A stretch of DNA of 64,000 nucleotides, from assembly GCA_035516035.1 (NCBI GenBank), contig DATJAS010000029.1, forward strand, positions 14,434 through 78,433. Direction: 5' to 3'. The stretch comes from Bacteroidota bacterium. GTDB taxonomy: Bacteria > Bacteroidota > Ignavibacteria > UBA10030 > UBA6906. Below, piece by piece: positions 1-63,292 of the stretch; the stretch's first letter is position 1, and every line of letters starts with the position of its first letter. The notes under the pieces are model-generated. The model made no database searches. It had not been told where the DNA came from and was given only the letters and a program-made list of their open reading frames with translations. A program made the translations under genes and the position numbers.

Positions 1-45
1 TGGCGCCCAAGGCGCCACCGAAGGCGCCCCGAGGCAATCTCACCC
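1..45. repeat. REP/MITE-like hairpin element, copy A (truncated by window start)
   Basis: ggcgcc...ggcgcc palindromes followed by ..gaggcaatctcacc terminus shared with other copies. Confidence 0.6.
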
Positions 46-1926
46 CCCCGCCTTCGGCGCGATGATGGCTTTCAGCAGGTCGGGCCGCGACGTGATCCGC
101 TCGAGGTAGGGATAGCGCTCGCCGCCGTGGTAGTCGATCGTGTACGTCGAGACGTAGTCGCCGTTCTGCGCGATGATCTGCATCGGCGCCGTGGCTTTCG
201 CCGCCAGGCGGATCGCGTCCCGGACCACGTATCTCGTGTACCGTTTCCCGTCCACGGCAATGAGCGTCATCCCGGGGGCAAGCCCGGCCTTCGCCAGCGG
301 CGTGCCCGGGATGACGTCGATGAGCATCCCTTCCTCGTTCACCGTCGCGCCGAGCGAATACCTGATGTCCGTCACGCGCCGGACCTCCTCGAAGTCCTTC
401 TGAAGCGCGTCCAGCGTGTCGCGGTAGGCAAGTCGCCAGCCGGCGCGTTCAATGCCCTCAAGCGGCGCGCGGGGGTTGAGCGAAGTCAGCCTTCCCCTGA
501 GATACGACGCCCAGTCGTACGGCGCGACGTCATTGAGCGTCCTGACGACGTCGTCGAACGTGTAGGGCCTGGTGAGCGGCGGGGTGTCCGATCCTCCGTG
601 GAACTCGCGGCAGAAGTCGTCCATCGATTTGCTGCCGTGCGTCCGCTCCCTGATGATGCCGTCAACGTCAAGCCAGATCAGGTTTCCCTCGTCGTAGTAG
701 TCGACCGTCCTCCTGTATGATTCCCAGTCCTGCCTCGATTCGTAGAGGATCTGGGCGGCGTCGGCGGCGTCCTGGAGCGGCCTCCATGTCCGCCCGGGCC
801 TGTTGTCAAGCTGCGCCGCGATCATTGCCATGTGCTCGCGGTACGTCTCCTGGCTCCAGAGACCGGAGCGGGCCGTGAGCAGGTTCCCAAGGTACTCGGT
901 CAGCCCCTCGTACACCCAGAGGAGATCCCCCTTCATCGGCGTGGTGAAATCTCCCGTGGCGAGACCCTCCGGCCTCCGGTATTTCCCGTTCCACGAATGG
1001 ACAAATTCGTGGGGGAGGAGCCCCGCCCTGAGCACCCTCATGCGGGGGTCGAGGATCGTCCGCTCTGCGACGCGGTCGTCGCTCGACTGGTGGTGCTCCA
1101 GTCCGAAGGACGCTACCTGGTCGCTGAGGGTATACAGGAAATCGTAATGGCGGTAGTGGTGCGCGCCGAAAAGCGCCGTGGCTTCACGAACCAGGTTCTG
1201 GTACTCCCTGACGAGGTCCGGCGGCGCCTCAATGGCCGCCTCCCCGTCTGAAGCGATGTCCAGGAAATGGGGGATTCCCGTCCCGGCGCTGATGTCGATC
1301 CGGTTGACGAATTCCCCCGCCTGCACGGGGGAGTCCACCAGCATGTTGAGCGTGACGGGCTTGAAATCCACTTTGTTCCCGTCCGTGCGTTCGGGCTCCA
1401 GTGCCGTGCCGATCTTCCACCCCGGGGGGAGTACCAGCGACGGTGTCACAATGATGCTATCGGGACGGGGCGAGGAGGGGTAGAGCACCACGGTATTCCA
1501 GCTCAGGACGACGAGGTGCGGCGAGGAATTTGCCCCGGCGGAGTATCCCCTGGCGATCGGGGAGAGTATGTAATCGAACGCGACCCTTATCGATGTAAAG
1601 CCCCTCGGGACCTCGCAGCGAAAGCAATACATGTCCGCCAAATCGCGTCGCCACGGGATGGATCGGACTGTGTCATCCGGTCCTTCGGTCGTGATATGGA
1701 GCCCCACAACGTCGACCACGGGGCCCGTCGGCCCGTGCTCGCCCGGTATCCACTCGGCATACCTCAGCGTGAGCGGGCCCGGTTGCACATCGATCACTTC
1801 GCTCGCATGCACGATTCTCCGCGGCGCCTCCGTCGCATCCACCGTGAGCCTGATGCCGGAGAGCGCCTGAGAGAGCGGCGTGGCAATACAAATGAGGAGG
1901 AGAAATACGGTTCGGCTCGACGGCAT
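40..1926 (-). CDS. M61-family glycyl aminopeptidase-like zinc metallopeptidase with C-terminal PDZ domain (secreted)
   Basis: 628 aa ORF with an N-terminal signal peptide. HEFVHSWNG HExxH zinc motif typical of peptidase M61. C-terminal PDZ-like region (GLAPGMTLIAVDG). Confidence 0.7.
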   Translation of the reverse strand: MPSSRTVFLLLICIATPLSQALSGIRLTVDATEAPRRIVHASEVIDVQPGPLTLRYAEWIPGEHGPTGPVVDVVGLHITTEGPDDTVRSIPWRRDLADMYCFRCEVPRGFTSIRVAFDYILSPIARGYSAGANSSPHLVVLSWNTVVLYPSSPRPDSIIVTPSLVLPPGWKIGTALEPERTDGNKVDFKPVTLNMLVDSPVQAGEFVNRIDISAGTGIPHFLDIASDGEAAIEAPPDLVREYQNLVREATALFGAHHYRHYDFLYTLSDQVASFGLEHHQSSDDRVAERTILDPRMRVLRAGLLPHEFVHSWNGKYRRPEGLATGDFTTPMKGDLLWVYEGLTEYLGNLLTARSGLWSQETYREHMAMIAAQLDNRPGRTWRPLQDAADAAQILYESRQDWESYRRTVDYYDEGNLIWLDVDGIIRERTHGSKSMDDFCREFHGGSDTPPLTRPYTFDDVVRTLNDVAPYDWASYLRGRLTSLNPRAPLEGIERAGWRLAYRDTLDALQKDFEEVRRVTDIRYSLGATVNEEGMLIDVIPGTPLAKAGLAPGMTLIAVDGKRYTRYVVRDAIRLAAKATAPMQIIAQNGDYVSTYTIDYHGGERYPYLERITSRPDLLKAIIAPKAGG

Positions 1927-2105
1927 GTGCGTCCCTTTCCAGTGAGGGATTAGCGAGGAGTGACTCTTTGTTGAACTGCGAAAAATGATAGATAAAATAT
2001 CACTATGATGCCACTGATTTGACAGAATCCGGTGCGCCCGTTAGATTCTGGTATCCCCCGCTGAATCAACCCCTGAACGCCTGCACCAGTCGGCAGGAGG
2101 TTCCT

Positions 2106-4646
2106 ATGAATTCGCTCCGCCCCCTTCTTTTCGCATCACTCGCCGTCCTTGCAAGCACTTCATGGGCTCCGGGCCAATCGAACCCCGCGGCGGATATCGC
2201 CGCCTACGAGGCATTCCTCGCATCGCACACGGACCTGAGCACGACGCAACTCCTCGCCATGCACCCGGCGGGGACGTTCTCGGCGCACGCGGCCGTCTCT
2301 CCCGATCAGCTCGCGTACTATCACCTCATAGATTCCTGCTACCAGCTCACGGCATACGAGACCGGGCTCATTGCCGACCACGGGTTCATGGTGACGGACC
2401 GCATCCAGAAGCAGTCTTTTGGCAATGCGTTCATCGAAATCTACAACCGCGATCTTCCCGTCTTTGTGTCCGTCGATGCGATCCTCCACGCGGTCCACTC
2501 GTCTTATGACGTCATACTCAAGTCTGCTGAGGAGCAGTTCCTCATACCGGAAGTCGACTCATTGATCGCGGATCTTCGGGCCGGGATGCCGGCGCTGGCG
2601 GCGGCATACGGTCCTGAACCCGCAATGGGGGCGATGCTTCGCGACATCGATGTCTATCTCACCGTGGCTTCTGCACTTCTCGGGCAGTCCTCGGTTCCGT
2701 TTTTCCCGGAAGACGCGGCGAACGTCGGAAGCATACTCGTCCTGGTCGCAAACCTGGCCCCGGCGCAGGTTCCACTGTTTTCTTCGACTCCTCGAATGAT
2801 AGACTTCAGCCAGTTCACGATACGGGGACACTATACGGAATCGCCTGAGCTCGGGGAATATTTCCAGGCGATGATCTGGCTCGGCAGGACGGAGATATAC
2901 CTGATCCCCCCCGTGGCAGGCGGGCTGGCACCGTCGCAGACCTCCGCCGACATCCAGCGTCAGACGATTGACGGCGCGCTCCTGGTGGAATCGCTCTCGC
3001 GCGCGGGGGCGTTCCCCCTCCTCGGGAAGATCGACGGCGTTATCCGCATGTTCGCAGGGGAGCCGGATAACGTGACGTTCCCGGAAATGCAGACGCTCCT
3101 CGGCTGGACCGGTATCACGGCGGCGGATATGCTCCTCGACACCACGAAACTCGCGGCATTCCAGGACACGCTCATTGCCGAGCCGTTTGCATTCCAGAGA
3201 ATCAACTCCCAGATCCTGGCGAGTCCCGATCCGCTCCACCCGGCGACCATGAAGCCCGCCTCCTCATTGCTCCTGCTCGGGCAGCGGTTCGTGGCGGACT
3301 CCTACGTCACGGGGAACCTGGTGTACGACAGGATCAGCTATCAGGGGACAGCGGTGTGGCGGGCCCTCCCGTCCAGGTTCGACGTCCTGTATGCGCTCGG
3401 CAACGACGCTGCCGCTCAGCTCCTCGTGCCGGAGCTCGATCAGTACCACTACGCGACAAATCTCGCGGCGATGCGCTACCTGATCGACGGCTATGATGCC
3501 GGTTTCTGGACAGGGTCGCTGTACAACGCCTGGCTCGCCATGATCCGGGCGTGTAACCCTCCTCCTGATCGATCGACGCTGCCGCCCTTCATGGCTACCG
3601 CTTCCTGGTGGCAGGAGAAAATGAACACGCAGCTTGCCTCGTGGGCGGAGCTGAGGCACGATAATCTCCTCTACGCAAAGCAGTCGTATACCGTCGTTCC
3701 AATCTGCTCGTATCCCCGGAGCTATGTCGAGCCCATTCCGGCCTTCTTTGACGCTGCGGGGACGCTGGCGAGAGTCGGCAGGGACCGGCTTGCCCCGCTC
3801 TTCGGGACGGCGTGGGTGGGTCAAAGTCTTGCATCGTATTTCGGGACGCTCGCTGGTGTGACCGATACGCTCGGTTCGATCGCCCGGAAGGAGCTTGCCG
3901 GAACTTCGCTGAGCGCGGCTGAGGCCGGTTTCCTCACCCGGATGGTGTACCAGGATTCCTGGATAACATGCGGCGAGCCTGCCTCGGGATGGTATTTCAC
4001 GTTGTACTACCAGGGGAACAAATTTACACAGGCGGACTACATCGCAGCGGATGTCCACACGTGCCCGGCCGATGCCAGCGGGGATCTGGTCGGCTGGGTA
4101 TGGCACGTCGGTACCGGTCCCCTGAGCATGGCCCTCGTCGCGGCAAACACGGCTGACTGCGGATCGTTTGCCTGCATCGGGCCCGTGGCGGGTTACAGGG
4201 AATTCGTGACGAGCGGGTTCCTCCGGCTTACCGATGAACAGTGGAGCGCATCATACGCGCTCCTTGCTGCGAACCGGCCGTCGTTCGTGAATATCTACCT
4301 CGCGGACAGCGCCGGACATTCGCGCGGGGCCGGTGAGTCTCTTCTCACGGGCGTAGCACCCGGTGGAGCCACCGCGATTCCGCAAACGGCGGTCCTCTTT
4401 CAGAACTATCCCAATCCGTTCAACCCCTCAACGACAATCGGGTTCGTCCTGCCGGGGAGGTGCGCGGTGACGCTCGCGGTCTACAACACGCTCGGGCAGT
4501 GCGTCGCGACACTTCACGACGGCCTGCTCGATGCGGGGTATCACTCGGTCCGCTTCGATGCGGCCGGGCTGGCGAGCGGTGTCTATTTCTACCGCCTGCG
4601 CGCCGGCGATTTTGTGCAAACGAAGGGCCTCGCCGTGGTGAAGTAA
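2106..4646 (+). CDS. large secreted protein with T9SS C-terminal sorting domain (Por_Secre_tail); catalytic function unknown
   Basis: Internal ATG at 2106 preceded by GGAGG; signal peptide MNSLRPLLFASLAVLAST. Last ~80 aa (FQNYPNPFNPSTTIGF...GVYFYRLRAGDFVQTKGLAVVK) match the T9SS CTD consensus. Confidence 0.7.
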   Translation: MNSLRPLLFASLAVLASTSWAPGQSNPAADIAAYEAFLASHTDLSTTQLLAMHPAGTFSAHAAVSPDQLAYYHLIDSCYQLTAYETGLIADHGFMVTDRIQKQSFGNAFIEIYNRDLPVFVSVDAILHAVHSSYDVILKSAEEQFLIPEVDSLIADLRAGMPALAAAYGPEPAMGAMLRDIDVYLTVASALLGQSSVPFFPEDAANVGSILVLVANLAPAQVPLFSSTPRMIDFSQFTIRGHYTESPELGEYFQAMIWLGRTEIYLIPPVAGGLAPSQTSADIQRQTIDGALLVESLSRAGAFPLLGKIDGVIRMFAGEPDNVTFPEMQTLLGWTGITAADMLLDTTKLAAFQDTLIAEPFAFQRINSQILASPDPLHPATMKPASSLLLLGQRFVADSYVTGNLVYDRISYQGTAVWRALPSRFDVLYALGNDAAAQLLVPELDQYHYATNLAAMRYLIDGYDAGFWTGSLYNAWLAMIRACNPPPDRSTLPPFMATASWWQEKMNTQLASWAELRHDNLLYAKQSYTVVPICSYPRSYVEPIPAFFDAAGTLARVGRDRLAPLFGTAWVGQSLASYFGTLAGVTDTLGSIARKELAGTSLSAAEAGFLTRMVYQDSWITCGEPASGWYFTLYYQGNKFTQADYIAADVHTCPADASGDLVGWVWHVGTGPLSMALVAANTADCGSFACIGPVAGYREFVTSGFLRLTDEQWSASYALLAANRPSFVNIYLADSAGHSRGAGESLLTGVAPGGATAIPQTAVLFQNYPNPFNPSTTIGFVLPGRCAVTLAVYNTLGQCVATLHDGLLDAGYHSVRFDAAGLASGVYFYRLRAGDFVQTKGLAVVK

Positions 4647-4652
4647 CCATCT

Positions 4653-4700
4653 CTGTCATTGCGACGAAGTCCGCTTCTTGGCGTGGCGATCTCACCGTGA
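4653..4700. repeat. REP/MITE-like element, copy B (degenerate)
   Basis: gtcattgcgacgaag...ggcgatctcacc. Confidence 0.5.
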
Positions 4701-4728
4701 CGCGGTGATTGTCCTCAAAGGCTGCCGC

Positions 4729-7700
4729 CTATTGTCCGGTACAGAGGAGCCGCACGGGGCCGAGAAGCCCCGATGGAAGCAGCGGCGACTTCGCGGTATA
4801 GTGCCGCCACGTCGCGAACGTGTGCCGCGCGGGGGGGCGCAGGGGGTCTGCGCCCCGCAGCCATCGCGGCCACCGGATGAGATTCCCGCCAGGGCCGTAT
4901 GCGGCATCGGGGCGCATCTTTTCATCGCCGATCAGCCTGTTCGGCCAGAGATTGGCGACACGTATCTCCAGCGTGTTGCCCCTGATCCTCAGGGCGTCCG
5001 TAACCTCGACACGCCACGGGGCGCACCAGACCGTGCCCAGGCTGTGCCCGTTCAGCCGCACGCTCGCCATGTTCTTCACGACGCCGAGATCGAGCCACAC
5101 CCTCGCGGTGCCGCCCGCTGCGCGAGCGGCGGGGTGGGGGCGATCGAACTTCGCAACGTACGTCGCGACCCCTGAATAGTACCTGATACCCTTTTCGGGC
5201 CTGGCTGTCCAGTCCTCAAGATGCCTGAATGTCTCGCGGCCCGGCCCGCCAAGCGATGTGTCAAAGGACACCCTCCACGGTCCCCCGATCACTCCGAGCG
5301 TATCGAGAGCAGGGAAATCAGTGCCAGGCCCGGCCAGTGGGGCGTGCCTGAATACGACGAAGTACGACTGGAGCGGCTCGAATCGGATGGGGAGCGTCGT
5401 GAGTCCCGCCGAGACAGAGTAGTCATGCATGTCGCGCGTGACGCCCGTGAGGGGGTCCCAGAGCTCGGGCTGCATCCCCGCGGTGCGGAATACGCAGATC
5501 GCCTGCACGGCCTTCTCCTCCGGGTTTGCGACGAAATAGATCCCGGCCCCGTCAACCTCCCTGTGCGTGTACCGGATGTGGACGTCGGACGAGAAATCAG
5601 GAGGCACGCCGTCCCGGGCCAGCAATCTCGTCACGAACCCGTAGTCGGCGTACTGTTCCTGCTCCATTGCACCTGTCCCGCTCCTGAGCGAATCCGTCTC
5701 TTTCCAGGTCGCGCGGTCCCACACCACCCGGCCCTTCCCGAATGCGTGTGATTTCACACGGACGCCGTCGCAGTCTCCCCAGAGATCCTCCGCGAGCGCG
5801 CGCACCCGTTCGTCGCAGGCCGGGAAATCGGAGAGCCCGGGCGATTTTTCAGGCCGGGGCCCGACGACCGTCGCTCCCTCCCGGACGAGGTCGCGGACCT
5901 TCCCGAGCAGCGCGGGCGACATTGTCTTTCGCTCCGGGAGGACCAGGAGGCGATAGCTCATGCCGCCGGGCAGCGTGAGCCTGCCGTCGCGCACACTCAT
6001 GTCCGCCATGAACACATCGGGAGCGCAGCCGTCAAAGTTGTACCCCTCTCTGTCCGGAGGATCCCCCCGGAGCGCCGAGGCAGGGGGACGGAACACCTCC
6101 GGCGCTCCCTCGGCGACAAGGAAGCAGACGTCGGCCACGGGGAGTCCCTGCATGAGCAGGAACTGGCAGCGGGAAAGGTATGTATGGTAGGCGGGGACCA
6201 TTTCCCACCAGGTTTGCGTCCGCTCCCAGTGGACCCCGAAAGGGCCCATCGTCATGCCGGGCGCGAGGTGAAGCCACGGCTGGTGCTGGTAGCGGTGGAA
6301 GACGAACCGGTTTACCCCCGACGCAAATGCCCAGTCACCGAGCGACTTCATCGAGCCGGGCCAGCCCTGCCATTTCTCCCCGTCGCCCGACGTGAACGCC
6401 TCCGCGTCCACTTCAGGCTTTCCGGTTGTGTGCGCAATCGAAGTCGCCTCGAAGACGCTGTACGACGTGTTAAACCCGTAGAGCCAGAACTCGCACATCG
6501 GGACGTCGGCAATCGATCCGAGGCTCATATCTGCGCACGGTGTCATGTCGTACGGTTCGATGGAAAGCGTGAGCCCGTCTCGACGGCCGAGATCCCTGAG
6601 ATGCCTGGCGTGGTTTTCGAGAAGAAGCTCCCCGGCGGTCGCCCTGAGGTCCCAGAGGAATCTCTCCGACGTTTCACGGTCTCTGACGATCGCCCCCGTG
6701 AGCGCGGGAAGGTACGGGAAGATATCGTAACCTCTTCGCCGGGTGAACTCCTCTCTGAATCGGCCCGTCCAGTTCTGCGAGCCCATCTCCCAGCTATCGA
6801 TGTGCAGCATCGTCCAGCCCCCTCCTCCTGCCCGATTCCGGGGCCCGATCTCCCGGAGGAGAGACCCGATGAACGCATCGTAGTGCGCGTTGAGTGCGGC
6901 GGTGTCGAGCTTGTCGCATTCGAGCCCGAGTCCCGGAACGGGAGCCGGTCGCGAGTTCGCTCCGTTGCTCGTCCGGCCGAACCGCGCGATTGTCCAGCGT
7001 CCTGGCGGTACATGCCACGCCAGCCGTCCCCCCACGGAGAGCCTGGACGTAATGTCAACGACGTTCGTCGGGTCAACTGCCGCACCCGCGGGCAGTTCCG
7101 GATACGCGCTCTCCACTGGAATGAACGGCTTCACCCCCTTCTGTGACGAATAGGGTGCCCGCACGTAGAGGGCTTTCTCGTTAATGTCGGGAATTGTATC
7201 TGCAGCGGATGGTGTCGGATACGCAAGCACGCCGACGTCGCGGTAGTAATCGTTTTTCGCCTGCTCCAGCGGGGCGGGGAGCAGCGAGTCGCCGAAGAAC
7301 GCCCGGCGCCTGGAGGGGCGGGGGAGGAATCCATCGAACATCGCGGGACCGCTCACCCGGGTGGTTGCCCCCACCAGGAGCTGCATTGAGTTCTCAGGAG
7401 TCACCCAGGGGCCGCCGCTCCCCGTCCATCCGGGTCCTGAAAGAAGCGTCACCTGAATCCCGCACCGCTCCGCCTCTCTCACAACGTGTTTGAACAGCTC
7501 CTTCCACGCGGGACTCATAAACTTGACCGGTCCACGCGGGATTCCCACGTTCACCTCCATGATCATGACGCCGCCGATGCCCGCCCGCTTCATCGACTCG
7601 AGATCGGCGGTGATCCCTTTGCGGCTCAGGTTCCCGTCCATCCAGACCCAGTAAACCCAGGGCCGCACCGAATCTGGAGGAGTGCGAAAGCCCGCCTCGA

Positions 7701-7770: not shown

Positions 7771-7992
7771 CGCGCGTCTGCCCGTGTGAGCGGGGGAAGG
7801 GGACACGTGGATCTCCGGGAAATAATCGTGGGACTGCAATGTACTGGAAACGGTCAATAACCTCAATTCCCTGCGGGGGAGGATTATTCGAAGGATTATC
7901 CGTGCACAAAATCGTCCCGTCGAGGAACCACCTAGCGCAGCCGGCGTTATTTTCAGTTGTGCATCCGCAACTCACCCGTCCGTTCACACACG

Positions 7993-8304
7993 ATGGAGGC
8001 GTTCATGTTCATGTCCAGGGAGATCATGCACTGCAAACCCGGGAAAGTGAAGGAGCTTGTCGAGAAGTTCAAGGTCCTCTCCGGAGCGATGAAGGAGATG
8101 GGGCTTCCCCCCGTGAGAGTCTACACAGACGTGAGCGGGGAGCAATACTGGACCGTGGTCGTCGAACAGGACGTGAACAGCCTCGACGAAATGGCGAATA
8201 TCGCCCGCAAGACGATGTCAGACCCAAAGGTCGCTGCCGCGATGAAGGGGTACCACGAGCTGGTGAACGACGGCCGCCGCGAGCTCTACAGGGCGGAGCA
8301 GTAA
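7993..8304 (+). CDS. hypothetical small cytoplasmic protein
   Basis: ~100 aa ORF in a coding-dense context, followed by a REP hairpin. Start codon uncertain (ATG at 7993, 8005 or 8011). Confidence 0.4.
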   Translation: MEAFMFMSREIMHCKPGKVKELVEKFKVLSGAMKEMGLPPVRVYTDVSGEQYWTVVVEQDVNSLDEMANIARKTMSDPKVAAAMKGYHELVNDGRRELYRAEQ

Positions 8305-8311
8305 CTCCTCC

Positions 8312-8350
8312 GTCATTGCGAGGGGCGCCGAAGGCGCCCCGAAGCAATCT
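8312..8350. repeat. REP/MITE-like element, copy C
   Basis: cgtcattgcgag-gggcgccgaaggcgcccc-gaagcaatct. Confidence 0.7.
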
Positions 8351-8837: not shown

Positions 8838-8862
8838 GGGGGGCGCCCCTGGCGCCCCCTCC
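8838..8862 (+). terminator. GC palindrome hairpin downstream of 8508..8825 gene (REP-core-like)
   Basis: ggggggcgcccctggcgccccc perfect inverted repeat. Confidence 0.45.
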
Positions 8863-14239: not shown

Positions 14240-14851
14240 ATGACGGTTCGAAGGAATCTGAGCGTCCTGGTGGCGGAAGACGATGCCCTTGTCTCCGATA
14301 TCATCGAGCATCAGCTCGGCCTGATCGGCTGTGCCGTGGTGGGGAAAGCTTCGGACGGGACGCAGGTCGTCGAGAAATCCCGTGAACTCGCACCGGATAT
14401 CGTCCTGATGGATATCGAGATGCCGGGTCTGGATGGTCTCCAGGCAACCGAGGAGATCCAGCGAACTGCCCCGCGGCCGGTCGTCCTCCTGACGGCGCAC
14501 GAAAGTCCCGACCTGGTCGCCAGGGCGGGGCGGGCGGGAGCCGGCGGGTACCTGGTCAAGCCCACCACGCCGGAGGAGCTGGATCGCACACTGGCGATAG
14601 CTGTGGCAAGATTCAACGACCTGATGGAGCTCAGGCGCCTGAACGAGCAGCTCACGGCCGCCCTGGCCAGCGTAAAAACCCTCTCCGGGCTCCTCCCGAT
14701 TTGCGCCAGCTGCAAGAAAATCAGGGATGACCGGGGATACTGGCTCGCCGTGGAGGCCTATATCATGGGCCACACGGATGCCCGGTTTTCCCACGGCTGC
14801 TGCCCTGAGTGCCGGCAGAAACTCTACCCCGATTTGAGCTCCCGCGGCTGA
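14240..14851 (+). CDS. response regulator (REC domain) with unusual C-terminal Cys-rich tail (CxxC...CPxC)
   Basis: RBS GAGAGGA upstream. REC motifs VAEDD, LMDIEMPGLDG, GYLVKP. Tail LPICASCKKIRDDRGYWLAVEAYIMGHTDARFSHGCCPECRQKLYPD. Confidence 0.8.
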   Translation: MTVRRNLSVLVAEDDALVSDIIEHQLGLIGCAVVGKASDGTQVVEKSRELAPDIVLMDIEMPGLDGLQATEEIQRTAPRPVVLLTAHESPDLVARAGRAGAGGYLVKPTTPEELDRTLAIAVARFNDLMELRRLNEQLTAALASVKTLSGLLPICASCKKIRDDRGYWLAVEAYIMGHTDARFSHGCCPECRQKLYPDLSSRG

Positions 14852-14954
14852 AGGACCGGCAAAACCTCTGCCCCGGTTTGATCTCCGCCGGGTGAAGGAC
14901 CGGCAAAATCTCCGCCCCGGTTTGATCTCCGCCGGCTGAAGGGCCGGCAGAACC
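14848..14954. repeat. 44-bp tandem direct repeat, ~2.5 copies plus a degenerate copy inside the response-regulator 3' end
   Basis: ctgaaggaccggcaaaacctctgccccggtttgatctccgccgg / gtgaaggaccggcaaaatctccgccccggtttgatctccgccgg / ctgaagggccggcagaacc. Last codons of RR (ccccgatttgagctcccgcgg) resemble the unit end. Confidence 0.75.
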
Positions 14955-17140: not shown

Positions 17141-17151
17141 CCTCAACTTCT

Positions 17152-17215
17152 GTCATTGCGAGAGCTTTTAGCGAAGTGCGCTCTTTGCATCACGACGCTT
17201 CCTGGCGTGACGATC
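17152..17215. repeat. REP/MITE-like element, copy E
   Basis: tgtcattgcgagagcttttagcgaag... Confidence 0.5.
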
Positions 17216-19306: not shown

Positions 19307-20083
19307 ATGCGCAACAGCGTCAGCATACGCCTTTCGACCGCCGCGCTCGCTGCGGCCACCTTCCTGGCGGGCGGGACGTCGTACCGCCCGGCCTTCGCGC
19401 AGGAGGGATCCCGCCCCGATCCCCGGAAACTGCTCGAGCAGGCCGACCTGAGCCGCAACGGCTGGGACACGTTCGAAGTGACGGCCGTGATCCGCAACTA
19501 CCAGAACGGCGAGCTGAAGGACGAAGGGAGCTTCGACACATACATCAAGGGGGCCGACAGGACGCTCGTGAAGTTTATGAACGTCGATGTGAAGGGGCAG
19601 TACCTCCTCATGCTCGAGGATGCGATGTGGATCTACCTCCCCAACACGAGAAAGCCCATCAGGATCACGCCGCTCCAGCGGCTCCTGGGCGACGCATCCA
19701 ACGGCGACGTGGCCCGGACGCGATGGGCGGGGGACTACGACGTCACGCTCAAGGGGGAGGAGAAGGTGGACGACGTCGCGTGCTACGTCCTGGACCTCGT
19801 CGCCCGGAGCGACGGGGCGACGTACAACCACGTTATCCTGTGGGTCAGGACGGAAGACTCCAGGCCCCGCAAGGCGGAGATCTACCTCACCTCCGGGAAG
19901 CACTACAAGACGATCTTCTACGATACGTTCAGCGTCGTGCACGGTCGGCTCCTCCTGGCGCAGATGACGATCATCGACCGGCTCCGGGAAGGGAGCACGA
20001 CGACGATGACGTTCAACGGGTACAACCCCCGGGAGATACCCGAGAAATGGTTCAACAAGGACTACCTGGAGAAACTCCGGTGA
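19307..20083 (+). CDS. LolA-like outer-membrane lipoprotein-sorting protein
   Basis: RBS GGAGGA. Signal peptide, ~230 aa mature beta-rich sequence. Co-operonic with ABC ATPase and FtsX permease. Confidence 0.55.
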   Translation: MRNSVSIRLSTAALAAATFLAGGTSYRPAFAQEGSRPDPRKLLEQADLSRNGWDTFEVTAVIRNYQNGELKDEGSFDTYIKGADRTLVKFMNVDVKGQYLLMLEDAMWIYLPNTRKPIRITPLQRLLGDASNGDVARTRWAGDYDVTLKGEEKVDDVACYVLDLVARSDGATYNHVILWVRTEDSRPRKAEIYLTSGKHYKTIFYDTFSVVHGRLLLAQMTIIDRLREGSTTTMTFNGYNPREIPEKWFNKDYLEKLR

Positions 20084-21426
20084 CGTCCGTCGGCCCTGGG
20101 GCAAGACCGGTAGATCCATATCGCATCCTCGAGGTGAGGAGAGCGATTCGAGTCGCGCCCGGCGGAGTGCTCATCGCGGTGCTCATGGCCTGCTCCGCGC
20201 CTGCGGGAGCGCAGGATCTGGACTACCGCATATCGGCCGTGGACGAGGCTACGGCGTGGCACCTGAATCCCGCCACGCCGTACAATGCCGGAAACGCCAT
20301 CGTGCCCCAGCCCGTCCGGGGCAATACCGGCACCGCTGATGCCGCACTCGGGTATGGCATCTTCTCGACATCGCTCGGGTTCACCGCCGTTGCGAGCGAC
20401 ATCCAGCGGCCGGACTACCGGTTCGATGTCCGCGAGGTGGCGGTCGACCTCTCGCTCGGCGAGTCGTGGGACCTCCTCCTGGGAAAGAAAATCCTCAAGT
20501 GGGGAACGGGCTATGCGTTCAACCCGACGGGCGTGATCGAGCCCCAGCGCTCCCCCTCGGACCCCACCGACCGCCTCAACCAGAACGAGGGGCGGAATCT
20601 CGTGTCGCTGACCGGGTTCATCGGCAAAAGCTCGCTCACGGCGGTCTACCTGAACGATGCGGTGTATGCGCATTCCTCTCTGGCCTGGGGAAAGAACGAA
20701 ATCGCGCTTCGCGCGTACACGTTTCTCTCCGGGCTGGACCTCTCGCTCGTCGCTCACTACAGGGAGGGGGACAGGCTCGAACTGGGCGCCAACACCTCGT
20801 ACGTGGTCGGCAACGACCTCGAGCTTCACGGCGAGGTGCTCGCGAAACGGGGCTCCTCCATGCTGTACCATGCCATACTGCAGTCCGATGATCCCGCGCA
20901 GGAGTTCACCGCCTTTCCGTACGCGGCGGCCGACGATGATTCCCGTGAGATCTTCTGCAAGCTCCTGGCCGGGGGGCAGTTCACCTTCGCCAACGGCATC
21001 AACGTGGCGCTCGAGTACTACCACAATCAGGAGGGACTCACTCTCCGGGAATGGAAAAGGTGGATGAACTTCGTTAACTTTCAGGATGCCGTGCAAAGGG
21101 GAGCCGTCGCGGTGGACCCGTCGCTGATTGCCCCTTCGCGGCTGAATCTTCTCTGGTCGCTCCTCACGCTCTCACCGCGCGGTACCATGAGAGACTACGT
21201 GTTCCTCCGCGGAGCGTACGCGGAGGAGGGCTGGAGCTGCGAGGCCATCTGTTTCATGAATGCAGCCGACGCGAGCGTGGCCCTCATCCCGACGCTCACA
21301 TGGAAGGCCTCCGCTCCCGTCTCCGTCTACGCGCGGTACACCGGCTACCTCGGGAGCAACGGCTCGGAGTTCGGATCCCTCTTCACGACGTCCGGCCTCG
21401 GTCTCGGCATCGGAGTCCAGCTATGA
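20080..21426 (+). CDS. putative outer-membrane beta-barrel protein (hypothetical)
   Basis: Possible GTG start overlapping upstream stop. Signal-like LIAVLMACSAPAGAQ. Alternating beta-strand pattern. Start uncertain. Confidence 0.4.
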   Translation: MTSVGPGARPVDPYRILEVRRAIRVAPGGVLIAVLMACSAPAGAQDLDYRISAVDEATAWHLNPATPYNAGNAIVPQPVRGNTGTADAALGYGIFSTSLGFTAVASDIQRPDYRFDVREVAVDLSLGESWDLLLGKKILKWGTGYAFNPTGVIEPQRSPSDPTDRLNQNEGRNLVSLTGFIGKSSLTAVYLNDAVYAHSSLAWGKNEIALRAYTFLSGLDLSLVAHYREGDRLELGANTSYVVGNDLELHGEVLAKRGSSMLYHAILQSDDPAQEFTAFPYAAADDDSREIFCKLLAGGQFTFANGINVALEYYHNQEGLTLREWKRWMNFVNFQDAVQRGAVAVDPSLIAPSRLNLLWSLLTLSPRGTMRDYVFLRGAYAEEGWSCEAICFMNAADASVALIPTLTWKASAPVSVYARYTGYLGSNGSEFGSLFTTSGLGLGIGVQL

Positions 21427-34985: not shown

Positions 34986-35156
34986 GGGGCCACCCGGTGA
35001 TCCAATAGGTCAGTCAATGTACCGAGCGAATCGTCCATCGGCAACAGGCATCCCGTTTCAGCCGGTGTCTGCCCCGGATGACAGGTTTTTGCGCGGTGCA
35101 GGAGAGCGTGCGGCGGTGGACATTCGCGAAACCTTCCCCTACATTTCACGTACCCC

Positions 35157-35280
35157 GATCATCGATGCCCGACCATTCACGTAGCTTGATCATCAATAGC
35201 CGACCATTCGCGTACTTCGACCATCGATACCCGACTATTCACGTACACTGATCATCGGTATCCGACACTCCCATGCCTGA
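35157..35280. repeat. 31-bp direct repeat x4 immediately upstream of, and overlapping the start codon of, the LCM-family methyltransferase
   Basis: gatcatcgatgcccgaccattcacgtagctt / gatcatcaatagccgaccattcgcgtacttc / gaccatcgatacccgactattcacgtacact / gatcatcggtatccgacactcccATGcctga. Confidence 0.75.
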
Positions 35281-47600: not shown

Positions 47601-49147
47601 CCCTCCCCGATCCGATCCCCGAACTCCATGTACGCGTCCTTGGCCGAGGTGTACGCAGGCCACCGCGCTCCCCCATCAATCGCGGGATTCCCGGTTCGCG
47701 CGAACTGCAGCCAGGCGGCGTGCATGGCATCCGACACCGTCTCGTCCTGGCCGGACAACAGCGCGGCGTCGGGGTACGGCTTGAAGACGTAGAAGATCTC
47801 CGCGCCATGCGTCGCCCCGAGGCCACGTGCGCTGAGGGGAGGGGCAACGCGCGTGAAATGATACATCCAGACGTTCGGGTTGTGTGTGCTCATCGCCCGG
47901 GCAGCACGCCGGGCCGGCGCGATGAACGAGGAGATTGTGACGAGGCGGGCGATTGCCGGCCTCACCTCACTATCGGTGCGCACCGGGAACATCCTGAGCA
48001 CCTCGTCGGCGTATTCGCCGAACAGTCTCCGCGCCGCGAGCACGTAGCCCGTGGTCTTCCTGATCGGGATTTCCGGGAGGAAGAGCGTCCCTTCGTCGGC
48101 GTTTGTCCCGATCAGGACCGGGACGATGTTCCCCTCGCCGGAGGCGTAGATCTCGAGAGGCTCTCGCGGGAGCACATAGCCGTCGATCGCCGGGCCCATC
48201 TTCCGTCCCGAACCGAAGAGTCCGACCCTCGGACTGGCCGCCTGGAGGAGGGCTTCCGCGGGTATTGCCCGCAGCCGCGCGGCAACCTCTTCGGTCGCGC
48301 CTGCAGAATCGTCCAGCCCCGCCTGGCGGGCAATCGCCACACCCGTGGCCTCCGTCGCCAGTGAATCGTCCGCGCCCTGCCGGTGCAGGGGGGGGAGGCT
48401 CGCTGCAACGCCGCTTTCCATGATTGCCCGGTGGAAGAGTCCACGCGCAAGGGGGGACGCGATCAGGCACCCGACGGCAACGCTCCCCGCCGATTCGCCG
48501 AAGATCGTGACATTGGCGGGGTCGCCGCCGAACGCTGCGATATTGTCGTGCACCCAGCGGAGCGCCTGTATCATGTCGAGGAGCCCGTAGTTCCCGGACA
48601 CGTGATCGGGGGATTCCGCGCTCAGCGCGGGATGCGCCATAAAGCCGAACGGGCCGAGCCTGTAGTTGATCGTCACCTCGACGGCGCCGTCCCTTGCGAA
48701 GCTCAGCCCCCCGTACAACGCCTGGGCACCGCTGCCAATCGCAAACCCTCCGCCGTGAATCCATACTATGACCGGCCGTGCTTCTTCTTTCGGGGCGGCG
48801 GTCCAGACATTGAGATAGAGACAATCCTCGCTCTTCGGCCCCGTGATTCCCCTGATGACCTTCTGGTCCGGCTGAATGCAGCTTGGCCCGAACTGGGCGC
48901 AGTCGCGCGTGCCGCTCCATGCCTCGACCGGCTGCGGCGGCTTCCAGCGGAGAGCTCCCACCGGCGGCCTGGCGTACGGTATCCCGCGGAACACGCGCAC
49001 GCCGGAGCCGGCCTGTGCCGTCGTCCCGCGTATGGTGCCTCCCTCGACGGCGATCAGCGTGTCGGCAGTCTGCGCTGCGGCAGAAGAGACAAGCGCTCCC
49101 GCTGCAAGAACGATGATCGCCCCGATCCTTTCCGAGCCTCTCTTCAT
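47519..49147 (-). CDS. carboxylesterase type B (para-nitrobenzyl esterase-like)
   Basis: Signal peptide. FRGIPYARPPVG, HGGGF oxyanion region, nucleophile elbow GESAGS. Last ~15 codons lie within REP copy G. Confidence 0.85.
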   Translation of the reverse strand: MKRGSERIGAIIVLAAGALVSSAAAQTADTLIAVEGGTIRGTTAQAGSGVRVFRGIPYARPPVGALRWKPPQPVEAWSGTRDCAQFGPSCIQPDQKVIRGITGPKSEDCLYLNVWTAAPKEEARPVIVWIHGGGFAIGSGAQALYGGLSFARDGAVEVTINYRLGPFGFMAHPALSAESPDHVSGNYGLLDMIQALRWVHDNIAAFGGDPANVTIFGESAGSVAVGCLIASPLARGLFHRAIMESGVAASLPPLHRQGADDSLATEATGVAIARQAGLDDSAGATEEVAARLRAIPAEALLQAASPRVGLFGSGRKMGPAIDGYVLPREPLEIYASGEGNIVPVLIGTNADEGTLFLPEIPIRKTTGYVLAARRLFGEYADEVLRMFPVRTDSEVRPAIARLVTISSFIAPARRAARAMSTHNPNVWMYHFTRVAPPLSARGLGATHGAEIFYVFKPYPDAALLSGQDETVSDAMHAAWLQFARTGNPAIDGGARWPAYTSAKDAYMEFGDRIGEGSGLDSRECDLFDKIASSWRQMRHFSR

Positions 49148-50723: not shown

Positions 50724-50808
50724 TCTCATCTGTCCGTCATTGCGAGCGTTTTTTGCGAAGCAATCCCCCCGTCATTGCGAGGCCGCCGCAGGCGGCCGAA
50801 GCAATCTA
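50724..50808. repeat. REP/MITE-like element, two tandem copies (H)
   Basis: cgtcattgcgagcgttttttgcgaagcaatcc + ccgtcattgcgaggccgccgcaggcggccgaagcaatct. Confidence 0.7.
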
Positions 50809-58125: not shown

Positions 58126-58533
58126 TCAGTGATCTCCGTGATGCTGGTGCACCCGCCGCGGATCGTGATCGAGCGTGCCTGAGGCGATCGCGGCGATCAC
58201 CTCGTCGATTGTGCGAAGGCCGGTGAGCACCGGCAGGAGATTGGCCCGCCGGAGATGGTCGACCGCTCCCTGCCCCATCCCGCGCACAATCACTGCCTGG
58301 CAGTCGAGGATGGGGGAAACCATCGTCCGGTGCCGGTGTTCGTGGTCGTGCTCCCCCTGGCTGCTCCCCTCCGGGCCGAAACTGTGATGCCCAGCCTTCT
58401 CCCTCCGCTCCCTCCTGACGACCCTCCCTGCAGCAAGGTGGATGACCTCGTAATACCCAGCGCGGCCGAAATGCGAGCTGACCGTAGTGCCGTCGTCTGT
58501 GGCGACGGCGATTTTCGCGTTTTGCAGATCCAT
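58126..58533 (-). CDS. NifB/NifX-family (dinitrogenase FeMo-cofactor-binding domain) protein with His-rich regions
   Basis: KIAVATDDGTTVSSHFGRAGYYEV N-terminus typical of PF02579. His-rich tails (EHDHEHRHR, HQHHGDH). Confidence 0.6.
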   Translation of the reverse strand: MDLQNAKIAVATDDGTTVSSHFGRAGYYEVIHLAAGRVVRRERREKAGHHSFGPEGSSQGEHDHEHRHRTMVSPILDCQAVIVRGMGQGAVDHLRRANLLPVLTGLRTIDEVIAAIASGTLDHDPRRVHQHHGDH

Positions 58534-58537
58534 GGTA

Positions 58538-59731
58538 TTAACAGCCTCCGCTGATTTTTTTTACCGCCGGGGGTGGCGCGCTTGCGCGCGCCCTGTACTC
58601 CCGGATCATCTGCGCGAGCACCGGCTTCGCTTCCGTGCGGAAGCGGAAGGTGTCGGCTTCGTCGCGGGAGCGCGGCGGGTGGGATGGTGTGAACCCGAGG
58701 ATCGTGGAGTCGACCGCGGCGACGCCTCCCTCCAGCACGCGGACGTTATCGTAACCCAGACGGAGCGCGAGGAACGCGGCGTTCCGCGCGGCGCTGCCGT
58801 CCCTGTCGACAAACACCCGCTCTTCGTGCCGCATCCCGAGCAGGCCCGCGTATTGCTTCCCGAACAGTGCCCCGGGGGGGATATTGACGGACCCGGGGAG
58901 TATGGTGGCCGTGGAGTCCAGGGCGGTGCGGACGTCGACAATCACCAGCCGCGGGTCGCGGTCGATGATCCGGAATGCCAGCTCGTCGGCCGTCATCATG
59001 GCGATGGGGTGGCTCCTCTGGAACTCCGCGGAACGGCTCTCGTCGACGAGCAGCGTTTTCCTGTCGGGAATGAACAGCGCCACAATCCCCAGGGCGACGA
59101 GTCCCGCTCCCGCGAGCGCGTGCGCTCGGCGCGGCCACGCACGCGCGGGGCTCTCCGGGTTGACCCGCTTTTCTATCCAGGTCGTTGCCGCGAACGCGCC
59201 GACGGCGACCAGAATGAGCAGCAGTACAAACACCCCTTGCGACATCCCGAGCGAGTCGAACACCCTGATCGGCCCCAGCGCGCCGGATGCGTAGAACCCG
59301 TCGTACAAGGGGAAGAGCTCGCCGAAGACGAATACCCCCAGGATACCGCCGGATACAAAGGCGATGGCGTCTTTCTTGCCGATTGACGCCGCGACGATGC
59401 TGGTCCCCGGGCAGTATCCCCCGAGGATGAATCCCACCCCCATGATCGCCCCGCCGACGATCGCCGGCCCGAGAAACATCGGGTTGACGTAAATGATATC
59501 GGTATCCAGGTAGCCGAAATACCCGAGGAAGATTACTCCGAGCATCGCGGTGACGGCCGCAGTGAAAAACACACGGAGCACCGTAAAATCGTAGCCGTAA
59601 AAGAGCCCGGCCAGCCGCCGGGAAGACGAGAACCCCGCCTGCTCGAGCACGGCGCCGAATGCGATCCCGAGCAGGAATGCGACCACCAGGTTCATCTCGT
59701 TGGTGATGATATCGGGGACAAATGGTCCCAT
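58538..59731 (-). CDS. YeeE/YedE-family sulfur-compound transporter fused to C-terminal rhodanese domain
   Basis: GGYCPG sulphur-transport motif. Rhodanese-like C-terminus (VIVDVRTALD...NVRVLEGG). Confidence 0.75.
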   Translation of the reverse strand: MGPFVPDIITNEMNLVVAFLLGIAFGAVLEQAGFSSSRRLAGLFYGYDFTVLRVFFTAAVTAMLGVIFLGYFGYLDTDIIYVNPMFLGPAIVGGAIMGVGFILGGYCPGTSIVAASIGKKDAIAFVSGGILGVFVFGELFPLYDGFYASGALGPIRVFDSLGMSQGVFVLLLILVAVGAFAATTWIEKRVNPESPARAWPRRAHALAGAGLVALGIVALFIPDRKTLLVDESRSAEFQRSHPIAMMTADELAFRIIDRDPRLVIVDVRTALDSTATILPGSVNIPPGALFGKQYAGLLGMRHEERVFVDRDGSAARNAAFLALRLGYDNVRVLEGGVAAVDSTILGFTPSHPPRSRDEADTFRFRTEAKPVLAQMIREYRARASAPPPAVKKISGGC

Positions 59732-59762
59732 GGAATTGCCTTTGTTAAGTCCTTGTCATTGC

Positions 59763-59807
59763 GAGTGGCGCCGCAGGCGCCACGAAGCAATCAGATCCAG
59801 AGCCTGC
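59763..59807. repeat. REP/MITE-like element, copy I (between the two yeeE-like genes)
   Basis: gtcattgcgag-tggcgccgcaggcgcca-cgaagcaatc. Confidence 0.7.
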
Positions 59808-60303
59808 GGAAGAAATACGCGACCAGGTACCCGCTGCCGAAGATGGCGATCATCGTCAGGAACCCGCCGCTGCTGAGCACCGCCATGCCGCTGAGCGCTG
59901 CGCCGCTGGTGCAACCCCGGGCGAACTGCGCCCCGGCGCCGAAGAGCGCGCCTCCCAGCACCGCCATGACCATGCGGAGCCCGGTCGTAGCGCGTGGACC
60001 TTTCTCCGTCACCCACGTGAGTCTCCGCGAGACCACTCCCGAGAGGAATCCCCCGAAGAGCACGCCGGCGACCTCGAAGACCAGCCACTGCTTGAGGGGG
60101 CTCCCTTCGTGGGCTCCCGCAAACTCCCTGTAAAAGGGGGAAGACTCGAGGTGGTTCGGCGAGGCAGTCTGCACGCCTGCGACGACGACGCTCTTGAGCG
60201 CGCCGCTGGCCCCGAGGCCCCGCCCGGTGAGATAAATCGTCAGCAGGAGGACGAGCCCGAGCAGCACCCCTGCCAGGTACGGATTCATGTATTTCGTGTT
60301 CAT
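59791..60303 (-). CDS. YeeE/YedE-family membrane protein (second half-transporter)
   Basis: FARGCTSGAALSG motif. ATGA overlap with upstream cytochrome b gene. Confidence 0.7.
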   Translation of the reverse strand: MNTKYMNPYLAGVLLGLVLLLTIYLTGRGLGASGALKSVVVAGVQTASPNHLESSPFYREFAGAHEGSPLKQWLVFEVAGVLFGGFLSGVVSRRLTWVTEKGPRATTGLRMVMAVLGGALFGAGAQFARGCTSGAALSGMAVLSSGGFLTMIAIFGSGYLVAYFFRRLWI

Positions 60304-60956
60304 GGCGTAGCTCCTTGTCTGGCCGCGTTGCCGGGTGAGTCCTTCTCTTCGCCGGCCTCCAGTTCCTCCCAGCCTGTGATCATGGCGCGCAGGTTCGAGA
60401 CCGGGGTCCTCCCCGTGGTGATGAGATAGAGGTGGGCGATCAGGAACGCCACGAGGAGGAACGCACCGGCCGTGTGGAGCAGCGCCACGACACGGAGCCC
60501 CTCGATGTTGAGTGCCTCGATGGCGTGGCGGGAGGGGTACCTGTAGAACATATAGAGGAGGCCGGAAAGGACAAGGACCGGGATGACCAGGATCTTGAGC
60601 CCGAGATAGACGAGCCGCTGCAGCGGGTTCAGCTTGCTCAGGCCGGTCTTCCGGGTGGGATGGGGCGCGTTCCGGAATATCCCGAAGAGGTAGTAGGCGA
60701 GTTGTGCACGGAGGTGGCTGCGCGTCGGGATATACTGGCGCCATTCACCCGTCGTCAGGTGCCAGAAGATGGCGAACGCAATGAGCGCAAGGAGCGCTCT
60801 GGCGGCGAGCGAATGGTAGCGCACCGCCTGGTCGAACCCGAAGAACGAGATGGAGCCGTGGATCTCGAACCCCGTGATCATCATGAAGAGTATCAGCAGG
60901 GCCTGCGTCCAGTGCCAGAACCGCTCAAACGCCCGGTAAATGTATTCGCGTTTCAT
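60300..60956 (-). CDS. membrane di-heme cytochrome b subunit (Ni/Fe-hydrogenase / thiosulfate-reductase cytochrome b family)
   Basis: 4 TM helices with conserved His (FERFWHWTQALL, HSLAARALLA, HLYLITTG). ATGA overlap with octaheme cytochrome gene. Confidence 0.65.
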   Translation of the reverse strand: MKREYIYRAFERFWHWTQALLILFMMITGFEIHGSISFFGFDQAVRYHSLAARALLALIAFAIFWHLTTGEWRQYIPTRSHLRAQLAYYLFGIFRNAPHPTRKTGLSKLNPLQRLVYLGLKILVIPVLVLSGLLYMFYRYPSRHAIEALNIEGLRVVALLHTAGAFLLVAFLIAHLYLITTGRTPVSNLRAMITGWEELEAGEEKDSPGNAARQGATP

Positions 60957-62527: not shown

Positions 62528-62958
62528 GGGGTGGTTTGCTGTATCAGTTGCTTGATGCCGGCGCAGGACGTCGCCATGCGGTAGACCTCGCAGGAGCGGC
62601 ATTCCCGGCCTTCGCATGGATTGCCGGCGTGACGGTATGTCCAGCAGCCGCCGTCGTGGTCCGTGTACGCGGGACAGTGCCTGCGCTCCTCGTCCGTGCA
62701 GTGGACGAATTGCCAGCAGGGAATGAGCGAATGCATCCTGCGGATCCCGGCGATCCCGACTTTTTCTTCGGTGATCGCTCTGCGAATGCACTCAAGCCTG
62801 TGGACGTCTGCTTCGGTGTACAGTCGCTGTCCCCCTGCCGACTTGTGCGGCAGTATCAATCCCTCCGATTCGTAGAGGCGAAGCGTCTGTACGGAGACCT
62901 CGAGGAGACGGGCAACAGTCCCGATCGAATAGACAGGTTTATCAGTTCTCTGGTCCAT
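62524..62958 (-). CDS. MerR-family transcriptional regulator with C-terminal 8-cysteine domain
   Basis: MerR HTH (YSIGTVARLLEVSVQTLRLYESEGL). C-terminus CWQFVHC...HCP...GGCW...NPCEGRECRSCEV. Stop overlaps start of cytochrome gene. Confidence 0.7.
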   Translation of the reverse strand: MDQRTDKPVYSIGTVARLLEVSVQTLRLYESEGLILPHKSAGGQRLYTEADVHRLECIRRAITEEKVGIAGIRRMHSLIPCWQFVHCTDEERRHCPAYTDHDGGCWTYRHAGNPCEGRECRSCEVYRMATSCAGIKQLIQQTTP

Positions 62959-63235
62959 ACCTACAGTTATAGCTAGCAAGTTAGATGCCAGTGTAATATG
63001 TAGCTCCCAGATGCTGCGTTTTTCAGGGGAATCGGCGGGCTATCGATAAGGAGTGACAAATCCAGGTGTTGTTGCTTGCCACCAAGTGTTGCGGCTTTCA
63101 ACACTCACATGTGCGTTCGGGCTTCGGAATCGCCAATCTTGCCAAATGAGTTCTCGATTCCTGCAACCATGCAAGGTGAGGAGCGAGTCAGCGCGGGAAA
63201 TAATGCCGGCGAGATTGATTGGTGCGGACTTCCAC

Positions 63236-63292
63236 GCGAAGAAGCGGCGCCTGCGGCGCCGCAGAGGCGCCGCAGGCCGTGCAATCTCATTA
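63236..63292. repeat. REP/MITE-like element, copy J (5' arm missing)
   Basis: gaagcggcgcctgcggcgccgcagaggcgccgcaggccgtgcaatctcat. Confidence 0.5.

Follow-up and report, generated by a model that had tools for sequence, protein, structure and literature searches.

A bipartite CGTC-tagged hairpin family in an Ignavibacteria contig and its association, in other genomes, with Ssn-type GIY-YIG nuclease genes

What are the short hairpins that recur at gene ends in this DNA, and what kind of enzyme would read them? The window, meaning the whole stretch of 64,000 nucleotides from contig DATJAS010000029.1 of a soil Ignavibacteria bacterium (metagenome-assembled genome, assembly GCA_035516035.1), carries several copies of a hairpin with ATTGC/GCAAT arms, and copies of the same family flank a small GIY-YIG nuclease gene in other bacteria. 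The window copies are probably DNA-level target hairpins of the class known as CGTC-tagged repetitive extragenic palindromes (REPs) and as SRM, cognate to Ssn-type nucleases and orphan in the window. The association of such hairpins with a GIY-YIG nuclease is already published (Chenal et al. 2025, Nat Commun 16:2388, PMC11893778), and the present result is an independent re-derivation of that Ssn/SRM system. It extends that work by an uncatalogued hairpin subfamily, which the published SRM search pattern, as transcribed here, misses.

Six canonical copies in the window, named type A, have the layout YGTCATYGCGAG–hairpin–CGAAGCRATC. The pattern GTCATYGCGA-N(8-38)-GAAGCRATC matched six times, always on the + strand, and not once in 100 dinucleotide-preserving shuffles, so the repeated hairpin family proposed in an earlier sequence-only reading is real and exceeds what composition would give. 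The 5′ arm GTCATTGCGAG alone was found five times in the window against 0.01 expected. A covariance model built from unrelated loci recovered the same six sites, with E values from 1.8e-6 to 0.03 and no other convincing match, and folding of the copies agreed with the proposed ATTGC/GCAAT stem and GC-rich distal stem. A second subtype, type B, is defined by a different 3′ arm, GCGTGRCRATC (GCGTGGCAATC), with three copies in the window, where the chance expectation is 0, and 113 copies in 66 unrelated loci. The window total also includes one type A copy clipped at the window start and one hybrid.

Family-wide conservation was studied in 466 copies collected from 241 stretches (2.08 Mb in total), with no more than one mismatch allowed in either arm. 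The canonical window copies share one fold, in which an unpaired YGTC tag precedes stem 1 (ATTGC/GCAAT), an internal loop and a distal stem-loop. The asymmetric internal loop consists of a 5′ GA and a 3′ GAA and is closed by a G-C pair, while a C stands directly after stem 1. In the 466 copies, collected with a pattern that fixed the arms, GTC and the final C were the sole arm positions without any mismatch, and both are kept in type B. The position before GTC is C or T (frequencies of 0.45 and 0.49), and the tail reads C-Y-M(-G), that is, an invariant C, then C/T, then C/A, then G at 0.43. Stem 1 is nearly invariant and its rare variants are compensatory, including the ATCGC/GCGAT form of both window copies that flank a low-GC island.

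The interior behaves differently from the constant arms, with 305 distinct interiors of 4–60 nt among the 466 copies; the commonest, CGAAG, gives a GCGAAGC mini-hairpin. The distal stem is hypervariable, 2–12 bp or more, and its Watson–Crick pairs are interspersed with tandem G·A pairs. Nevertheless, the distal helix covaries: 54 distinct 32-nt copies from unrelated loci gave 30 double-changed cells versus 6.6 after shuffling, and 0 of 500 shuffles were as high. Subtypes A and B occur paired as heterodimers in a Helicobacter canis prophage. Rfam contained no family at the copies, neither at gathering thresholds nor at E ≤ 5, and a sequence-based literature search for the family returned unrelated primer matches or nothing.

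The repeat had been taken as genome-specific, but it is not, since its exact arms recur in phage contigs and in bacteria of about 20 or more lineages. The arms, with 21 specified bases, were matched exactly in at least 120 stretches of species-representative genomes and in at least 120 IMG/VR viral contigs. Among the genome matches listed, and judged by record titles, the lineages include Alpha-, Gamma- and Deltaproteobacteria, Campylobacterota, Bacteroidota, Ignavibacteriota, Chloroflexota, Cyanobacteria, Melainabacteria, Planctomycetota, Verrucomicrobiota, Spirochaetota, Gemmatimonadota, Armatimonadota, Zixibacteria, Latescibacterota, Omnitrophota, Atribacterota, Firmicutes and several Patescibacteria. 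Of the viral contigs, about 25 come from tailed phages that are related to each other and encode SPP1-type portal proteins together with capsid and adaptor proteins of the SU10 type. Novosphingobium resinovorum (NZ_CP017076.1) holds at least 40 copies, and Bradyrhizobium is likewise rich in the family.

The gene association was observed at a starting locus from Planctomycetota, where a 96-aa GIY-YIG gene (L171:5075-5365) lies exactly between inverted copies. Relatives of this protein were taken from metagenomes without selection on the repeat, giving 80 loci with 59–73% identity and host GC of 35–67%. Copies were present at 77 of these loci, at a density of 8.2 per kb within 120 nt of the GIY-YIG gene versus 0.20 per kb beyond 300 nt. 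Flanking with the tags outward was seen for 33 of 72 GIY-YIG genes versus 5 of 1498 control genes (p = 6e-43). The upstream + copy ends 14–19 nt ahead of the start codon and the downstream − copy starts 0–4 nt past the stop. The GIY-YIG catalytic residues are conserved, and the 96-aa protein is 44% identical (E = 2e-26) to a gonococcal homologue of 94 aa, the gene of which lies between NTS-type (CGTC-1) copies. The Neisseria gene ssnA, which codes for a 94-aa single-domain GIY-YIG nuclease, is flanked by NTS (CGTCATTCCCGCGMAVGCGGGAATCYRG) and by related SRM hairpins (PMC11893778).

More distant homologues from cultured bacteria gave the same picture. In all ten hosts (Neisseria, Azospirillum, Sinorhizobium, Rhizobium, Novosphingobium, Sphingobium, Aeromonas, Photobacterium, Spirosoma and Planktothrix), the gene lies close to a hairpin from that host's own CGTC/TGTC-tagged family, eight times in the canonical arrangement. 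The nuclease family amounts to 12,660 representatives at 50% identity (E ≤ 0.001), and no close GIY-YIG relatives were found in IMG/VR. Units that include the gene are far fewer than gene-less inverted dimers and single copies.

Some further observations were made on these nuclease genes. Ssn-type genes were found inside conserved gene pairs, namely uvrB/uvrA, sufB/sufC, gltA/lpxB and an MmeI restriction enzyme with DISARM drmA (L339:10001-10288, L342:598-891, L343:586-870 and L344:598-882). Many database representatives of the nuclease (P0242-P0254 and others) are 125–170 aa long with the match beginning at residue 30–75; such entries probably result from gene starts called too far upstream, beyond the flanking repeat. 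In one group of nuclease units (L252, L258, L269, L286, L289, L295, L306 and L315), the 8–10 nt outside both tags are mutually inverted (…ACATTCTC-GT|GTCAT… and …ATGAC|GG-GAGAATTTG), so that the unit may extend past the tags or sit within another palindrome.

Regarding arrangement and turnover, the inverted dimers of the family comprised 96 with tags outside (HH, with spacers of 21–27 nt) versus 12 with tags facing (TT) and 24 tandem pairs. The spacers of gene-less dimers were considered as remnants of the nuclease leader, and this was rejected, as they are CAG…CTG palindromes unlike the leader. Particular copies have been gained or lost between relatives, both among related phage contigs and between the window and a syntenic relative. 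Between two phage genes, an insert of about 55 nt is present in two contigs and absent from six relatives, and one phage copy lies in frame within a gene (L116:3518). At one phage intergenic site, L072 holds a GTAG-tagged hairpin (GTAGTTGCCTGATTTATCAGGCA) at about 6750-6775, and L002 (4355) and L105 (3694) hold a CGTC-type copy preceded by GTAGTTGCCTGA, which is also present in L072. Thus, GTAG- and CGTC-tagged repeats meet at a single site.

The copies of the window lie almost entirely on one strand. The + strand carries nine of the ten oriented copies, independently of the strand of the flanking genes, and all seven canonical copies when an additional + copy 4.4 kb past the window end (L350:1314-1352) is counted. 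A link to the replication strand was examined across the family and was not retained. Strongly negative GC and GC3 skew was found on the tagged strand, but it came from viral contigs, and the signal is confounded and non-independent because these contigs have co-oriented genes and include related phages. At genome loci the skew was not significant overall. Where both gene strands were present, the replication component was negative in 15 cases versus positive in 5 (p = 0.048). Neighbouring singletons were co-oriented 52:8 (51:7 in viral contigs and 2:3 at genome loci), and the skew of the window itself was uninformative on replication strand. The same-strand bias of the window copies is the one feature left unexplained.

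Among the individual copies, the clipped type A copy (…CCCCGAGGCAATC) occupies 1-39 on the + strand, and its tail directly abuts the stop TCA (40-42) of a − strand M61 peptidase gene. A type B copy (TGTCATTGCGAC…GGCGTGGCGATC) lies at 4654-4691 on the + strand, in a convergent spacer 8 nt past the stop of the + gene 2019-4646, and the covariance model gave it an E value of 1.4. The best canonical copy, at 8311-8349 on the + strand (43.4 bits, E = 1.8e-6), combines the CGTC tag, the ATTGC/GCAAT stem, the GA/GAA loop and an 8-bp GC distal stem, and starts 7 nt past the stop of the open reading frame (ORF) 7957-8304. Another type B copy, with a long interior (…CTGGCGTGACGATC), spans 17151-17215 on the + strand, 11 nt past the stop of an AHSA1-like gene and also in a convergent spacer.

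Further along, a reversed type B copy with a long GGCGCC-rich interior (43800-43884, − strand) forms a TT dimer, with a gap of 5 nt, with a type A copy at 43889-43933 (+ strand, ATCGC/GCGAT variant of stem 1). A second type A copy with the ATCGC/GCGAT variant is found at 47517-47561 (+ strand). The tandem pair consists of a type A copy at 50735-50765 (+ strand), whose distal stem is weak (GCG-T6-GCG) and which is antisense to both flanking − genes, and a type A copy at 50770-50806 (+ strand), the tail of which overlaps the stop CTA (50806-50808) of a − strand MFS gene. One more type A copy (59754-59792, + strand) lies antisense between the − strand sulphur-transport genes 58538-59731 and 59791-60303, with its tail overlapping the stop TCA (59791-59793). 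Lastly, 63227-63285 is a hybrid or degenerate, tagless element of unassigned strand, with two 3′-arm-like ends (GACTTCCACG… and …CCGTGCAATC) around GGCGCC palindromes and 87% identity over 38 nt with the left part of the reversed copy (43800-43837). Except for the TT pair and the tandem pair, the copies are mostly singletons. The tag is CGTC in four tagged copies and TGTC in the rest, and the tails read CTC, CCC, CTA, CAG and CTT.

In the sequence-only reading, the tandem pair, the copy between the yeeE-like sulphur-transport genes and the pair flanking the island were all correct. Its list was corrected as follows: 8838-8862 was rejected as a family member, since it is only a GC palindrome (GGGGCGCCCCTGGCGCCCC) with the arms absent; 43800-43884 had not been separated from its neighbour; and 4654-4691, 17151-17215 and 43800-43884 are type B. 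The description as a REP-like family mostly at gene ends was borne out, but not the stronger statement that all copies are intergenic: 47517-47561 codes for the end of an esterase, and the tails of 1-39, 50770-50806 and 59754-59792 abut or overlap stop codons. As for the palindrome 8838-8862, its GGCGCC motif also builds the distal stems of local copies, and by coordinate mapping a 93.8-kb ENA contig, k141_4726106 of ERZ27256514, ends there, at about window position 8849, which suggests an assembly break at the repeat. Other repeats in the window are unrelated to the family: a tandem array at 14812-14954 (three copies of a 55-nt unit, spacing 44 nt, 82–84% identical), another at 35137-35260 (four copies of a 31-nt unit, 71–77% identical) and a 25-nt inverted repeat (19613-19637 / 20109-20133, 96% complementary) enclosing 471 nt.

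The island between the two ATCGC/GCGAT copies (43980-47511) is 3.5 kb long with 55% GC versus 63%, and contains a CdhD/hgcA-like ORF (CdhD Pfam match), arsR, an arsC-type phosphatase gene, acr3 and a 124-aa ORF. In the syntenic relative (about 70% protein identity), the stop codons of the metallophosphoesterase and esterase genes are 16 nt apart, with neither repeat nor island, whereas the window has the type B/type A pair at this junction. A 96-nt unit formed by the hairpin copy and the preceding esterase codons is duplicated with 89% identity, bracketing the island on the + strand. The first repeat (43884-43979), with the copy 43889-43933 as its core and duplicated esterase 3′ codons, makes the left border, and the second (47512-47607), which overlaps the 3′ end of the esterase gene, makes the right one. 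This duplication fits integration of the island via recombination through the unit, and the suggestion that the copies serve as a recombination substrate therefore remains plausible.

The local side effects of the copies include a replaced protein C-terminus, supplied stop codons and the direct repeats around the island. Read on the − strand, the copy 47517-47561 supplies the last 14 codons and the stop of the carboxylesterase gene (47519-49147), the stop being the TCA of the GTCA tag. The protein ends (47519-47572) in KIASSWRQMRHFSR, while that of the relative ends in …AMSASRAAVPAGGER. The site of the tandem pair, at the MFS/peptidase junction, is occupied in the relative by a minimal form of 19 nt (GTCAATGCGAG-CAGCAATC); therefore the site is old and its interior turns over. 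Elsewhere in the relative (L353:18622-18663), two 5′ arms face each other about 20 nt apart, a palindrome not seen in the window.

How the copies might be read can be proposed from the Neisseria enzyme. SsnA binds NTS solely as single-stranded DNA, on one strand only, and cuts a few nucleotides upstream; cutting is governed by the three bases GTC ahead of the palindrome and binding by the C after it (PMC11893778). By analogy, the conserved base of the hairpin (the YGTC tag, ATTGC/GCAAT, the GA/GAA loop with its closing G-C pair and the C after the stem) would serve as the recognition module for a small Ssn-family nuclease with a single GIY-YIG domain, which would read it only in single-stranded DNA and only on one of the strands. 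The distal stem would then be a free, fast-evolving spacer with pairing as its sole requirement. In other genomes the nuclease gene lies between two inverted copies with tags outward. The window has only gene-less copies, which lie at gene ends, and the strand that would be cleaved is almost always +. Since a nuclease alone cannot transpose DNA, the copies most likely spread by nicking of the single-stranded hairpins followed by copying through host repair or recombination. We infer that an Ssn-type enzyme recognises this subfamily and that the host encodes one.

Several observations weigh against this interpretation. The published SRM pattern, HGTCWYN(0-2)YYVSBRHN(0-5)WNVSBRGN(0-2)RNCYNB as transcribed, matched 0 of 465 family copies and 0 of 8 window copies; the NTS positive control matched, and a CGTC-3 control was also missed. 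Since the hairpin is bipartite rather than a continuous 8–9-bp stem, recognition by an Ssn enzyme would be an extrapolation from the known targets. The invariance of the arms is partly circular because the search pattern fixed them. Strain variants (99.5–99.9% identity) showed no indel at any copy and no insertion polymorphism, and neither a target-site signature nor a transposition mechanism was found. Finally, tblastn detected no Ssn/GIY-YIG homologue in the window, in the 5.7 kb past its end (an extension for which one scan was aimed at repeats only) or in strain-variant contigs, and the window copies are therefore gene-less.

This last result also speaks for a rival view, that the copies are inert relics of a past invasion in a host without Ssn nuclease, idle save for occasional recombination. 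With no nuclease gene in about 70 kb, several copies that are degenerate, hybrid or weak-stemmed, no polymorphism among strain variants, and a copy at the same site in the relative of about 70% protein identity, and hence old, such an origin is conceivable, though we hold it to be less likely than not. Six copies keep perfect or compensated arms with stable folds, the location of seven of seven canonical copies on one strand is not expected from random decay, and, of the reference genomes that contain more than 200 SRM copies, 81% have a gene for an Ssn homologue (PMC11893778). A classical REP/REPIN mobilised by a RAYT (REP-associated tyrosine transposase, IS200/IS605-like) encoded elsewhere in the genome, the partner that had been anticipated, would give a similar appearance of short tagged palindromes, inverted dimers and gene-end positions. 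It is highly improbable here: the tag is YGTC and not GTAG, the flanked gene is a small GIY-YIG (Ssn-type) nuclease, clustering of the ORFs near copies in 240 loci gave no recurrent transposase and only phage portal, capsid and terminase families, and in the survey of Di Nocera et al. no RAYT gene lay between CGTC repeats (PMC3733652).

The copies could instead act in RNA, as terminators or as 3′-exonuclease barriers that stabilise the upstream mRNA, which was the role first suggested for them. Their positions, taken from codon-model gene calls made for this analysis (about 10% wrong in the window), speak for it, with the tag side 0–20 nt past a stop codon in 72 of 167 cases, divergent and thus promoter-bearing spacers avoided (5 of 111 singletons, versus 11 in convergent spacers), one copy within an apparent operon (59754-59792) and stable hairpins in either orientation. 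However, a T-tract was absent after every window copy and none of the 19 terminator-like sites in 43–62 kb falls on a copy. Nor does orientation follow transcription: the singletons between co-directional genes were 42 sense and 53 antisense, and four window copies are antisense to their flanking genes. Because the copies lack a T-tract and their family-wide orientation ignores transcription, a terminator role is unsupported. Moreover, the tag, internal loop and tail are conserved yet asymmetric despite this independence, no Rfam family matches, and the Ssn enzyme of the sister family is inactive on RNA (PMC11893778). An RNA-level function is thus unlikely as the main one, although the copies may have a secondary, orientation-independent stabilising effect.

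Target hairpins of an Ssn-type nuclease therefore remain the preferred interpretation. A bolder version of it can be put forward only as a speculation, and is rather doubtful: the ATTGCGAG bipartite hairpins would be a separate pan-bacterial, phage-borne lineage of Ssn targets, and the strand bias over about 68 kb would reflect selection keeping the cleavable strand off the lagging-strand template; the Ssn/hairpin pair would then be a replication-oriented mark that sets self apart from single-stranded DNA entering the cell, and not a mere selfish repeat. If true, current SRM definitions miss a pan-bacterial, phage-borne lineage. More generally, surveys based on the SRM pattern would undercount the system, since a large subfamily (about 20 or more lineages and tailed-phage contigs) escapes that pattern. 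Each subfamily is also a candidate for a new specificity of a site-specific single-stranded DNA nuclease, and Chenal et al. 2025 propose such enzymes as a molecular tool. In annotation, the copies give rise to spurious small ORFs and to N-terminal extensions, take the place of true C-termini and supply stops, and they may break assemblies. In the window, the repeat with one copy brackets arsenic-resistance genes and an hgcA-like gene.

In comparison with known systems, the family shares several features with NTS/SRM: an oriented hairpin with an upstream (H)GTC and a C directly after the palindrome; a repeat-gene-repeat arrangement around a single-domain GIY-YIG gene (cd10448-type) of about 95 aa, here in other genomes only; and gene-less copies that vastly exceed the gene and are spread across phyla. 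The enzyme reduces the transformation of meningococci by DNA with NTS five-fold (PMC11893778). Unlike NTS/SRM, the hairpin studied here is bipartite, with a 5-bp stem, a GA/GAA loop and a hypervariable distal stem, and has subtypes A and B that heterodimerise. The REP/REPIN–RAYT systems of Gammaproteobacteria are similar in the tagged palindrome, the inverted doublets, the single enzyme gene between inverted copies and an enzyme acting on single-stranded hairpins; however, their tag is GTAG and their enzyme is an HUH tyrosine transposase, which cleaves and rejoins, versus a hydrolytic GIY-YIG nuclease. Rickettsia palindromic elements (RPE), which are CGTC-tagged according to Di Nocera et al. 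(PMC3733652), also insert in frame into coding regions, as in the phage copy L116:3518 and the esterase C-terminus of the window, but they are longer, AT-rich and lineage-restricted.

In form, the family also resembles the CGTC-tagged REPs of Di Nocera et al. 2013 (PMC3733652). These were described in five phyla, with no partner enzyme and no transposase, as repeats with an unpaired CGTC or TGTC tag (CCTC tolerated), a stem that opens with A-T and T-A pairs, a short tail of about CCA and mostly head-to-head dimers, TT dimers being rare; the described families have continuous 8–9-bp stems and 4–5-nt loops (PMC3733652). The family reported here has the same unpaired tag and the same A-T then T-A stem start; likewise, head-to-head dimers dominate, copies occupy convergent or co-directional spacers and occasionally lie in frame in genes, and no transposase recurs next to them. 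Its tail is short and C-rich but varies after the first C, compared with about CCA. It differs in having a 5-bp stem, an internal loop and a variable distal stem in place of the continuous 8–9-bp stem. The ATTGC…GCAAT of CGTC-3 (CGTCATTGCCGGGCTTGACCCGGCAATCCA) is identical, with CGTCATTGC…GCAATCC shared. Compared via the peptides that the repeats encode, none of those listed for CGTC-1 to CGTC-4 (VIPAKAGI, VIAGLDPAI and others) corresponds. Chenal et al. 2025 do not cite the 2013 CGTC classification (PMC11893778), and the present family links the 'orphan' CGTC-tagged REPs of 2013 with the Ssn nucleases of 2025.

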